From: an uncultured Verrucomicrobiae bacterium
GTDB lineage: Bacteria > Verrucomicrobiota > Verrucomicrobiia > Chthoniobacterales > UBA10450
DNA length: 32,000 nucleotides
Direction of reading: 5' to 3'
Assembly (NCBI GenBank): GCA_963814965.1
Contig: CAWFFA010000021.1
Span: 15,793 to 47,792, forward strand
The first letter of the stretch is position 1. Each line of letters starts with the position of its first letter. A program made the translations under genes and the position numbers. Shown here piece by piece: positions 24,198 through 26,149 of the stretch. The notes beneath the pieces were generated by a model. The model was given only the letters and a program-made list of their open reading frames with translations, was not told the DNA's origin and did no database searches.

Positions 24198-24229
24198 AAA
24201 TGCCGTCCGGCGTTGGCAGGACGGCATTT
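24198..24229 (-). terminator. Intrinsic terminator directly after the 16S 3' processing-stem arm
   Basis: The minus strand reads AAATGCCGTCC-tgccaacgcc-GGACGGCATTT, an 11-bp perfect stem, followed by TCCTTTTCC. Confidence 0.65.
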
Positions 24230-24240
24230 AAGTCGATGGG

Positions 24241-24266
24241 CAGCAAATACTGAATTGTGCGTTATC
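24241..24266 (-). promoter_or_regulatory. 3' arm of the pre-16S processing stem (RNase III-type)
   Basis: Its reverse complement, GATAACGCACAATTCAGTATTTGCTG, matches plus-strand 26124-26149 at 23 of 26 positions, including 16 contiguous positions. In the minus-strand transcript the two segments are therefore complementary. Confidence 0.7.
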
Positions 24267-24423
24267 CGCGTCATTTCCTTGGGCTCTGGTTTCTTTCGAT
24301 TCCAAAGTCTTCACGGCATATCGCCTCAGATGATCAATTGATTCACCCGAGGGACTTAGCCGTCGACCTATTCAACCGCGCTTCGAAAAATAAATTTCTC
24401 GAGTGCGATGAATCTCTCCTTAG

Positions 24424-25974
24424 AAAGGAGGTGATCCAGCCGCAGGTTCCCCTACGGCTACCTTGTTACGACTTCATCCCAATCACCATCCATACCTTCG
24501 GCGCCTTTTAAGGGGCGACTTCGGGTACAAACGGCTTTCATGATGTGACGGGCGGTGTGTACAAGGCCCGGGAACGTATTCACGGCGCCGTAGCTGATGC
24601 GCCATTACTAGCGATTCCGGCTTCATGGAGGCGAATTGCAGCCTCCAATCCGAACTGGGCCCAGTTTTCAATAGATTTCCTCCACCTCGCGGTCTCGGAT
24701 CGTTCTGTACTGGGCATTGTAGTACGTGTGCAGCCCAGGCCGTAAGGGCCATACTGACTTGACGTCGTCCCCACCTTCCTCCTCGTTTAAGCGAGGCAGT
24801 CTGAACAGAGTGCTCGGAGCTCTCGCTCCGGTGGCAACAGTTCACAGGGGTTGCGCTCGTTGCGGGACTTAACCCAACATCTCACGACACGAGCTGACGA
24901 CAGCCATGCAGCACCTGTGCAAATTGTGTCTTTCGACACTCGCTGGCTTTCACCAACTTAGAGATGCATGTCAAGGCCTGGTAAGGTTCTTCGCGTTGCA
25001 TCGAATTGAGCCACATACTCCACCGCTTGTGCGGGCCCCCGTCAATTTCTTTGAGTTTTAATCTTGCGACCGTACTCCCCAGGCGGCACGTTTAACGCGT
25101 TAGCTCCGGCGCAGAAGGGGTCGAATCCTCCCACACCAAACGTGCACCGTTTACTGCCAGGACTACCGGGGTATCTAATCCCGTTTGCTCCCCTGGCCTT
25201 CGTGTCTCAGTGTCAGGAACTGTCCAGAGACCCGCCTTCGCCACTGGTCTTCCTTACGATATCTACGCATTTCACTGCTACACCGTAAATTCCAGTCTCC
25301 TCTCCAGTCCTCAAGCACGCCAGTATCGAATGCAGTTTCGGAGTTAAGCTCCGAAATTTCACACCCGACTTAGCGCGCCACCTACACACCCTTTACGCCC
25401 AATGAATCCGAACAACGCTTGAGACCTCTGTATTACCGCGGCTGCTGGCACAGAGTTAGCCGTCCCTTCCTCTTCTGGTACTATCAACGCATGTACAGTT
25501 AATACACGCGACTTGTTCCCAAATGACAGGAGTTTACAACCCGAAGACCTTCATCCTCCACGCGGCGTCGCTCGATCAGGGTTTCCCCCATTGTCAAAAA
25601 TTCTCGACTGCTGCCACCCGTAGGTGTCTGGGCCGTGTCTCAGTCCCAGTGTGACTGGTCGTCCTCTCAGACCAGCTACCCGTCAACGCCTTGGTGAGCC
25701 GTTACCTCACCAACAAGCTGATAGGCCGCGGGCTTCTCAAAAAGCGGTAGCTTGCGCCACCTTTAGCGTCCCGAAGATGTCTCCAGTAGCCACATGCGGT
25801 ATTAATCCGGCTTTCGCCGAGCTATCCCACACTTTAAGGCAAATTGCCCACGTGTTACGCACCCGTTCGCCACTAGACTTTCCACTGTATTGCTACAACG
25901 AAAAGTCCCGTTCGACTTGCATGTCTTATCCACGCCGCCAGCGTTCGTTCTGAGCCAGAATCAAACTCTCCGTT
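24424..25974 (-). rRNA. rrs: 16S ribosomal RNA
   Basis: The reverse complement starts AACGGAGAGTTTGATTCTGGCTCAGAACGAACGCTGGCGGCG and ends GTAACAAGGTAGCCGTAGGGGAACCTGCGGCTGGATCACCTCCTTTC. Universal blocks are present (GTGCCAGCAGCCGCGGTAATAC, GGATTAGATACCC, GCATGGCTGTCGTCAGCTCGTG). The length is about 1551 nt. Confidence 0.97.
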
Positions 25975-26123
25975 AAAAACGGTGAGACTCTTTCAAGCCT
26001 CAAAGTTTGCGTCGAACCCCGCTACGGGGCCGACAAAATCTGACCATTCGATAATCTGTTTCCCGCCGTAGCGGGCCACAGGTTCGTCCGATCTGTAATC
26101 TTTTTTTCCAAAGAAAATCAACA

Positions 26124-26149
26124 GATAACGCACAATTCAATTTTCGCTG
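26124..26149 (-). promoter_or_regulatory. 5' arm of the pre-16S processing stem
   Basis: It is complementary to 24241-24266 in the transcript and lies about 150 nt upstream of the mature 5' end. Confidence 0.7.

Follow-up and report, generated by a model that had tools for sequence, protein, structure and literature searches.

In E. coli-type rrn operons, the ribosomal RNA genes lie in the order 16S, tRNA-Ile, tRNA-Ala, 23S and 5S, with RNase III stems, a leader carrying boxB and boxA, and terminal intrinsic terminators. Some bacteria are said to depart from this plan. In Thermus thermophilus, as Hartmann and colleagues reportedly described in 1987, the 16S operon is apart from 23S/5S and has its own promoter and end. 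In Borrelia burgdorferi, according to what Schwartz and colleagues are said to have found in 1992, the 16S gene is followed by tRNA-Ala, protein-coding DNA comes before tRNA-Ile and 23S, and the 16S and 23S are transcribed separately; the 23S-5S copies reportedly lie within a few kb, with tRNA-Ile on the opposite strand and adjoining the 23S. Here we analyzed a 16S rRNA gene in a 32-kb stretch of DNA from an uncultured Verrucomicrobiae bacterium (the window, meaning the whole stretch of 32,000 nucleotides), where the gene is likely to form a transcription unit of its own, with its own promoter, processing stem and terminator.

Published work describes the same kind of arrangement. In Helicobacter pylori, whose 16S is separated, maturation starts when RNase III cleaves the typical long stem around the 16S; Thermus, Borrelia, Pirellula, Mycoplasma and Rickettsia are named as other split-rRNA cases (Iost et al., NAR 2019, PMC6582327). 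Candidatus (Ca.) Udaeobacter (DA101) and its relatives, which are described as abundant and ubiquitous in soils, represent the same lineage as the window and the same phenomenon, a 16S without a 23S nearby: 80/80 long reads assigned to the genus were unlinked (Brewer et al., 10.1101/705046). Brewer et al. classified the arrangement by the 16S–23S distance only. A term search of their text returned no mention of a terminator or of RNase III, and ‘promoter’ in the general introduction only, so that the promoter, stem and terminator of this unit are left undescribed there (10.1101/705046). The tRNA-Ala/tRNA-Ile relic discussed below is apparently not described in that text either, tRNAs not being among the terms searched (10.1101/705046). 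Hence, the arrangement is already published for the lineage; the stem, terminator, promoter and leader, and relic tRNAs are new descriptive detail, with no new mechanism.

Compared with the E. coli-type operon, the window retains a boxA-/boxB-like leader, a long 16S stem, a terminal intrinsic terminator and the classic pair of spacer tRNAs. However, 23S and 5S are missing, the 16S stem is immediately followed by the terminator, and the tRNAs are in the reversed order and split from the 16S by a protein gene. As in Borrelia, tRNA-Ala comes first after the 16S and protein-coding DNA is nearby, but the window has no 23S within 24 kb and both its tRNAs stand together, Ala then Ile. In the window the 16S is probably its own unit, with its own promoter and end, as in Thermus thermophilus, a thermophile of an unrelated phylum. 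With H. pylori it shares a 16S apart from 23S-5S and a long enclosing stem; there, however, cleavage is experimental, whereas in the window it is predicted, and the phylum is different. Unlike in the window, no spacer-type tRNAs are reported downstream of the H. pylori 16S in the portion of the article consulted (PMC6582327).

We found one full-length bacterial small-subunit rRNA gene in the window, on the minus strand at 24424–25976 (Rfam RF00177, 1489.7 bits, model positions 1–1533), with 91–98% identity to the 16S of 14 relatives. When the whole window was compared with Rfam, the RNA matches were this 16S and two tRNAs only. Neither 23S nor 5S was found in the 32 kb, which leaves 24.4 kb downstream and 6 kb upstream of the 16S free of both, in agreement with an earlier sequence-only reading of this DNA. 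The same reading had taken the flanks to be protein genes throughout, and in this it was wrong: tRNA-Ala(UGC) and tRNA-Ile(GAU) lie 0.7–0.95 kb downstream on the 16S strand. An arrangement is counted as unlinked when no 23S occurs within ∼1.5 kb downstream of the 16S, as is the case here. The genes that adjoin the 16S instead are unrelated to it in a layout that is reproducible in relatives (a 67-aa protein gene, the two tRNAs and a convergent TPR-protein gene). A canonical linked operon, 16S-tRNA-Ile-tRNA-Ala-23S-5S in one transcript, does not describe the window, because there is no 23S/5S, the tRNA order is Ala–Ile, and a terminator and a protein gene stand between the 16S and the tRNAs.

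The window was compared with 143 related loci from Chthoniobacterales/Ca. Udaeobacter (numbered with the prefix L below where they have to be told apart). A conserved 23S motif was absent from all of these 144 sequences, 828 kb in total, in which the relatives are covered by flanks of up to 10 kb. The 5′ arm of the processing stem precedes a 16S in 84/84 testable copies. We also considered leaders common to 16S and 23S and rejected them, as 0/84 of these copies precede a 23S. One part of the set came from a scan of genome collections with an anchor in the trailer, outside the arms and the hairpin, which returned 11 metagenome-assembled genomes (MAGs) titled Candidatus Udaeobacter, Verrucomicrobia or Verrucomicrobiota. 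Several homologues of the 67-aa protein are likewise named as Chthoniobacterales MAG proteins. With one group of metagenome contigs the window 16S shares 96–98% identity, and with the units of MAGs titled Ca. Udaeobacter ∼92%. From these identities and the titles of the related MAGs, the host is a close relative or a sister genus of Ca. Udaeobacter, and the window 16S may belong to the latter, a sister genus.

The processing stem is formed by a 5′ arm at 26108–26153 and a 3′ arm at 24230–24282, both on the minus strand, which were delimited by repeat search, folding and comparison of relatives. Read from the sequence, the 5′ segment CAGCGAAAAUUGAAUUGUGCGUUAUC (26149–26124) and the 3′ segment GAUAACGCACAAUUCAGUAUUUGCUG (24266–24241) make 23 Watson–Crick pairs over 26 positions, 16 of them contiguous, plus two G·U pairs and one A·A mismatch. 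They stand 148 nt (5′) and 158 nt (3′) from the mature 16S ends. The pairing and the distances (∼150 and ∼157 nt) given in the sequence-only reading were thereby reproduced. By repeat search, the complementary pair extends to 42 nt (26149–26108 with 24282–24241, 76% complementary). From the outside inward, the 5′ arm consists of an outer extension AAGUC (26153–26149), the main helix (26149–26121, in which one A is unpaired), an internal-loop strand of 4 nt and the inner helix UUUCUUUGG (26116–26108). The 3′ arm carries the inner-helix partner CCAAGGAAA (24282–24274), the internal loop, the main helix (24269–24241), a bulge of 6 nt (CCCAUC) and, outermost, the extension GACUU (24234–24230).

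Thus defined, the leader and trailer segments enclose the mature 16S with 21 consecutive pairs, seven more beyond a single 1×1 mismatch and a 9-bp inner helix, a length that suits an RNase III-type stem (about two turns, roughly 20 bp or more, near-continuous). The arm duplex has a predicted energy of −52.9 kcal/mol. Folding of the two arms had been proposed earlier; a mini-construct of the arms plus the terminator hairpin gave −71.2 kcal/mol, compared with −32.4 ± 3.5 kcal/mol in dinucleotide shuffles (z = −10.95, 0/200 as good), and produced the predicted architecture of main helix, 4×4 internal loop, 9-bp inner helix and then terminator hairpin. We used the arm construct because a search for the best duplex between complete leader and complete trailer was uninformative, long random sequences also reaching very low energies.

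Relatives support this stem in several ways. From the fetched loci we assembled 15 complete units with both flanks, 13 of them distinct. The main helix is identical on both arms in 15/15 of these units and in every 3′ flank recovered, despite 16S identity down to 91%, and is much more conserved than the spacer around it. Over the 13 distinct units, 27 of the 35 predicted stem pairs are invariant. The 3′-arm core UAACGCACAAUUCAGU does not vary in any 3′ flank, including those of the 11 genomes that were found by an anchor outside the arm, and the 5′-arm core is identical in 126/126 copies recovered, 21 nt of it having served as the metagenome search anchor. Three positions of the main helix are G·U and pair only in the rRNA-sense transcript, which makes the structure specific to that strand. 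The inner helix, evaluated in 14 complete units, has nine positions paired in at least 12 of the 14 sequences; two positions changed on both sides (G–C to A–U and back, with G–U intermediates, and U–A to C–G and back), and several U–A/U–G changes were also seen. These pairs were counted from sequence anchors, as RNAalifold with an artificial linker mispaired the inner helix and MAFFT placed its 3′ strand one column off. The conserved arms, the G·U pairs and, in a sample as small as 14 units, the two-sided changes at two inner-helix positions favor what had earlier been called a classic RNase III processing stem, with cleavage as its predicted fate.

Between the main and inner helices, lineage-specific 46-nt hairpin insertions (CCCCGAA..UUCGGGGUUGUCC..) were observed on either strand of the internal loop; L015, L082 and L120 carry them on the 5′ strand, L014 on the 3′ strand. 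If the structure is real, it is at just this site that insertions would be tolerated. The inserted element has the form CCCCGAA(N2-8)UUCGGGG followed by UUGUCC.. (L014 6534–6551, L015 2069–2086, L082 5495–5512, L120 4845–4862). The hairpin is absent from the window but occurs in 24 further loci, at varied sites of the 16S leader and trailer, and directly after tRNA-Ile in L012 and L020. In this it resembles a miniature mobile hairpin whose landing sites are loops in the flanks of stable RNAs. Within the main helix, the mismatch 26141/24249 is unpaired in all relatives though both of its bases change (A·A, C·C, A·C, U·C), which suggests that the interruption may itself be selected.

Next to the 3′ arm lies an intrinsic-terminator-like element (24189–24229, minus strand), recognized by sequence, folding and conservation in relatives. 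Its 11-bp perfect stem pairs AAAUGCCGUCC (24229–24219) with GGACGGCAUUU (24208–24198), 11 nt past the 3′ arm segment ending at 24241, and is followed by the tail UCCUUUUCC, exactly as noted from the letters before. Seven pairs of the stem are G–C, and the 10-nt loop is able to add two more. The element therefore has the make-up of an intrinsic terminator, a G+C-rich hairpin and then a U-rich tract on the transcribed strand, the tract being UUUUCCUUUUCC when the paired U's are included. A hairpin is present at the same position in 25/27 distinct 3′ flanks, 16–23 nt past the arm core, with ΔG of −11 to −25 kcal/mol and 4–9 T in the following 10 nt. In the basal 10 pairs of 10 distinct stems, the paired share of stem cells is 96%; in shuffles it is 81%, and with slid partners 30–40%. 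Two-sided changes affect five of the 10 pairs, with a covariation score of 0.424 versus 0.165 in shuffles (0/500 as high). The position of the terminator is therefore conserved, and its structure is kept despite sequence change. Furthermore, the gene after the terminator hairpin is convergent in L006/L007, and the tRNAs are on the strand opposite to the 16S in L001/L002; for these reasons the 16S of those loci is not co-transcribable with its downstream genes. The 25 flanks and the compensatory changes lend support to the earlier claim that the 16S unit has its own terminator, at which termination is predicted.

Several observations concern the same hairpin type and the trailer. In L016 (JBKPDP010000090.1), ∼190 nt after the 16S 3′ end, the hairpin is precisely deleted between GACUGCA and UUUUGUUUU, with the flanks and the U-tract kept, so this locus represents a natural no-hairpin variant. 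The same type of hairpin, GCCGGAUG...CAUCCGGC, also follows protein genes elsewhere in related loci, which fits a generic terminator. Second copies away from the 16S are located at L012 5866–5896, L048 6695–6726, L069 8421–8453, L013 1165–1197 and L018 4756–4788; they lie roughly 90–120 nt upstream of tRNA-Ala in L048 and L069 and directly before the 67-aa gene in L012. The copies point to a terminator module shared among sites, or to a duplication associated with the insertions. In the trailer itself, a conserved hairpin CUUUGG-AAUCGAAAGAAA-CCAGAG with a CGAAAG-containing loop was seen by eye in the relatives' sequences (24284–24307, minus strand), where its stem reads CCUCAC/GUGAGG (L068), CCGCGU/ACGCGG (L080) or CCCCGA/UCGGGG (L022). 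Besides this covarying hairpin, 24284–24360 (minus strand) contains the further conserved elements GGUCGACGGCU and GUGAAUCAAUUGAUCA. These trailer elements are probably signals for the folding or processing of pre-rRNA.

At the other end of the unit, we identified a candidate sigma-70-type promoter at 26358–26385 (minus strand) as a conserved block in 119 distinct 5′ flanks. In the window it reads TTGCAG (−35, 26385–26380), a 16-nt spacer and TAGTTT (−10, 26363–26358), and the consensus of the block in the alignment is TTGACG-N16-TATTTT. This candidate was not listed by a strict consensus promoter scan of the window. Transcription would start near 26351. Downstream, the leader has a conserved hairpin GGCUCGAAGCGAGCC (26295–26309, minus strand; from sequence and conservation in 5′ flanks) and an element GAUCUUUGACAG (26224–26235, minus strand) that is near-invariant in the 119 flanks. 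We take the latter to resemble E. coli boxA, presumably UGCUCUUUAACAA, and we call the hairpin boxB-like on the assumption that, as in an E. coli rrn leader, it lies upstream of the boxA-like element. By this analogy, GAUCUUUGACAG is a putative NusB/NusE antitermination site. Upstream of the promoter, a consensus scan detected a terminator-like hairpin, GGGGGCGGCC..GGCCGCCC with UAUAUUUUGG, at 26416–26439 (minus strand). It ends the upstream 166-aa gene (26967–26467) and may insulate the 16S unit from upstream transcription; since that gene ends in a terminator-like hairpin of its own, the unit would be insulated on both sides.

The comparison with related genomes, which had been called for before, thus bore out each part of the stand-alone-unit claim. 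We consider it likely that the 16S rRNA gene in the window, from a Chthoniobacterales relative of Candidatus Udaeobacter, is unlinked and has its own promoter, processing stem and terminator.

The first neighbor downstream is a gene for a 67-aa protein (MRGIIMRSISLEEY...; MRGII..EGYVDLGMFEEAE..) at 23827–24030 on the minus strand, between the 16S terminator and tRNA-Ala. That this is a real gene is shown by its 84 homologues, mostly of 65–70 aa and all from Chthoniobacterales-type metagenome or MAG sources. The alignment has 17 invariant columns, and AlphaFold confidently predicts an all-helical protein (pLDDT 88.7) with the look of a generic TPR-like helical bundle. No match was found in Pfam or NCBIfam, and Foldseek against PDB returned nothing below E = 2.8, its best hits being generic TPR-like helical hairpins. 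Among the 12 loci retrieved through this protein (L001–L012), the gene stands between 16S and tRNA-Ala in 10; the other two, L008 and L009, do not reach upstream to a 16S.

Then follow tRNA-Ala (UGC) at 23645–23719 and tRNA-Ile (GAU) at 23478–23552, both on the minus strand and found by Rfam and ARAGORN. The 3′ end of tRNA-Ile abuts the stop (23471) of the convergent TPR-protein gene, so no 23S can follow it. In all relatives having the pair the order Ala then Ile is kept, at 0.6–6.7 kb from the 16S 3′ end, and the DNA between is filled by differing protein genes. A 691-aa peptidase M13 gene stands between the 67-aa gene and the tRNAs in L001, L004 and L006–L011 (L001 10313–12388; L004 781–2856; L006 4619–6694) and is absent in the window and L003. 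In L006, L007 and L012, a four-gene block (DUF5069, GntR-aminotransferase and others), which includes opposite-strand genes, is located between the 16S terminator and the 67-aa gene. From this gene order, the two tRNAs and the 67-aa gene look like a relic 16S–23S spacer, from which the 23S was lost and into which protein genes were inserted.

A CAGGAA-repeat motif, GAAUCAGGAAnnCAGGAAnnCAGGAA, with a period of 8 nt, occurs just after the 16S terminator (24153–24178, minus strand). Further copies are found at 23772–23797 upstream of tRNA-Ala and at 11364–11389 (+) and 11435–11460 (−), the last two lying between two genes in inverted orientation to each other. This intergenic motif has eight matches versus 0.43 expected in the window and is also present in 16 related loci.

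A number of points weigh against the stand-alone unit as we describe it. RNase III cleavage, termination and promoter use are all read from sequence. The main helix shows no covariation, as its sequence never varies; for that reason the case for its pairing consists of complementarity and conservation. Moreover, the 21-nt anchor that brought in part of the sample lies inside the 5′ arm and so partly forces the invariance there. Two relatives lack a good terminator, the hairpin being deleted in L016 and degenerate in L048, and a simple consensus terminator scan of the window did not list the 16S hairpin, because its loop exceeds 8 nt unless an inner mismatch is allowed; both the promoter and this terminator were established by conservation, and strict consensus scanning lists neither. 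Three more points, namely a U-tract interrupted by CC (UUUUCCUUUUCC), a 67-aa gene and two tRNAs that share the strand of the 16S within 950 nt of its 3′ end, and the failure to find a clear sigma-70 promoter upstream of the window tRNA-Ala, where just a weak TTGATT-N17-CATCAA is seen, also bear on the possibility that the window is a relic operon with a leaky terminator. In that case the hairpin at 24229–24189 would only attenuate, and some transcripts would run through the 67-aa gene, tRNA-Ala and tRNA-Ile. This possibility gains from the order 16S ... tRNA-Ala then tRNA-Ile on the 16S strand in 11/13 loci having the tRNAs, and from the window sequence between the stop of the 67-aa open reading frame (ORF) and tRNA-Ala, where no hairpin is evident. 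In addition, a clear TTGCAA-N16-TAnAAT promoter precedes tRNA-Ala by ∼50 nt in most relatives, whereas the window, L003, L073 and L012 are without a clear sigma-70-like one. However, the 16S terminator is conserved with compensatory changes, relatives have 2–6 kb of protein genes, some of them opposite-strand, between the 16S and the tRNAs, L001/L002 carry the tRNA pair inverted, and in six Udaeobacter loci no such pair occurs within at least 5.9 kb. The kept terminator, intervening genes, inversion and absence indicate that the tRNAs are independent of 16S transcription across the group, and we regard a leaky relic operon as unlikely, although some read-through from the 16S may occur in the window's own lineage.

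An assembly artefact, with the contig chimeric or collapsed just past the 16S and 23S-5S normally next, is conceivable in so far as rRNA regions often break short-read assemblies and most related contigs end inside the 16S. Nevertheless, an independent Joint Genome Institute (JGI) contig, L003, repeats the 16S–trailer–terminator–ORF junction nearly base for base and carries both tRNAs in the same order on the same strand. A 2.08-Mb contig, L001, shares the flanking order as well, with ADH and SnoaL-like genes upstream of the 16S and TPR, VanZ and PMI genes downstream. The 15 independent complete units and 27 distinct trailers are all without a 23S, and the long-read literature agrees (10.1101/705046). 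The same junctions in L003 and L001 exclude a chimera at ∼24100–24200, the event that the sequence-only reading had named as fatal to its claim, and the chance of an artefact of any such kind is close to nil. Scarcely more probable is a role at the level of DNA, in which the arms would bound a mobile or recombining 16S cassette as its terminal inverted repeats, instead of forming an RNA processing helix. Arms that are invariant without covariation, and a 16S that changed neighbors during the evolution of the group, are what such a cassette would leave behind. On the other hand, the three G·U positions of the main helix and the U–A/U–G changes of the inner helix pair only in rRNA-sense RNA, the inner helix has compensatory changes, a transposase is lacking and we noticed no target duplication, and the arms are positioned like the RNase III stems of other bacteria (PMC6582327).

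If the window 16S is an unlinked unit as we propose, the life of its transcript may be pictured as follows. Transcription would start at the TTGACG-N16-TATTTT-type promoter (26385–26358), and the boxB-like hairpin and boxA-like element of the leader would load Nus factors. The polymerase would then cross the 16S and the roughly 230-nt trailer and stop at the intrinsic terminator near 24190–24197, giving a primary precursor of ∼2.16 kb. Leader and trailer would pair in an interrupted duplex of ∼40 bp, whose long helix RNase III would cut, and other RNases would trim ∼150 nt per side from the freed pre-16S. The 67-aa gene and tRNA-Ala/tRNA-Ile would be units separate from the 16S, and transcription of the 23S-5S genes would take place at a locus of their own in another part of the genome.

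The invariant arms, the constant unpaired position and the adjoining terminator could also mark a lineage-specific recognition site that goes beyond an RNase III substrate, an idea that we put forward as a long shot. If it were true, the factor bound to this site might coordinate the output of the unlinked 16S with that of the distant 23S-5S. Alternatively, read-through into the 67-aa gene and the tRNAs of the relic spacer might occur conditionally, so that a protein gene would be part of an rRNA–tRNA unit and share its regulation. How 16S and 23S output are balanced in organisms with unlinked rRNA genes is raised as an open question in the H. pylori study (PMC6582327). For this lineage, the locus provides a concrete, conserved map of a 16S unit, from the candidate promoter and boxA-like element through the stem and the predicted terminator to relic tRNAs with inserted protein genes. 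It also means that amplicon methods that span the full operon (16S-ITS-23S, where ITS is the internal transcribed spacer) will miss this lineage.

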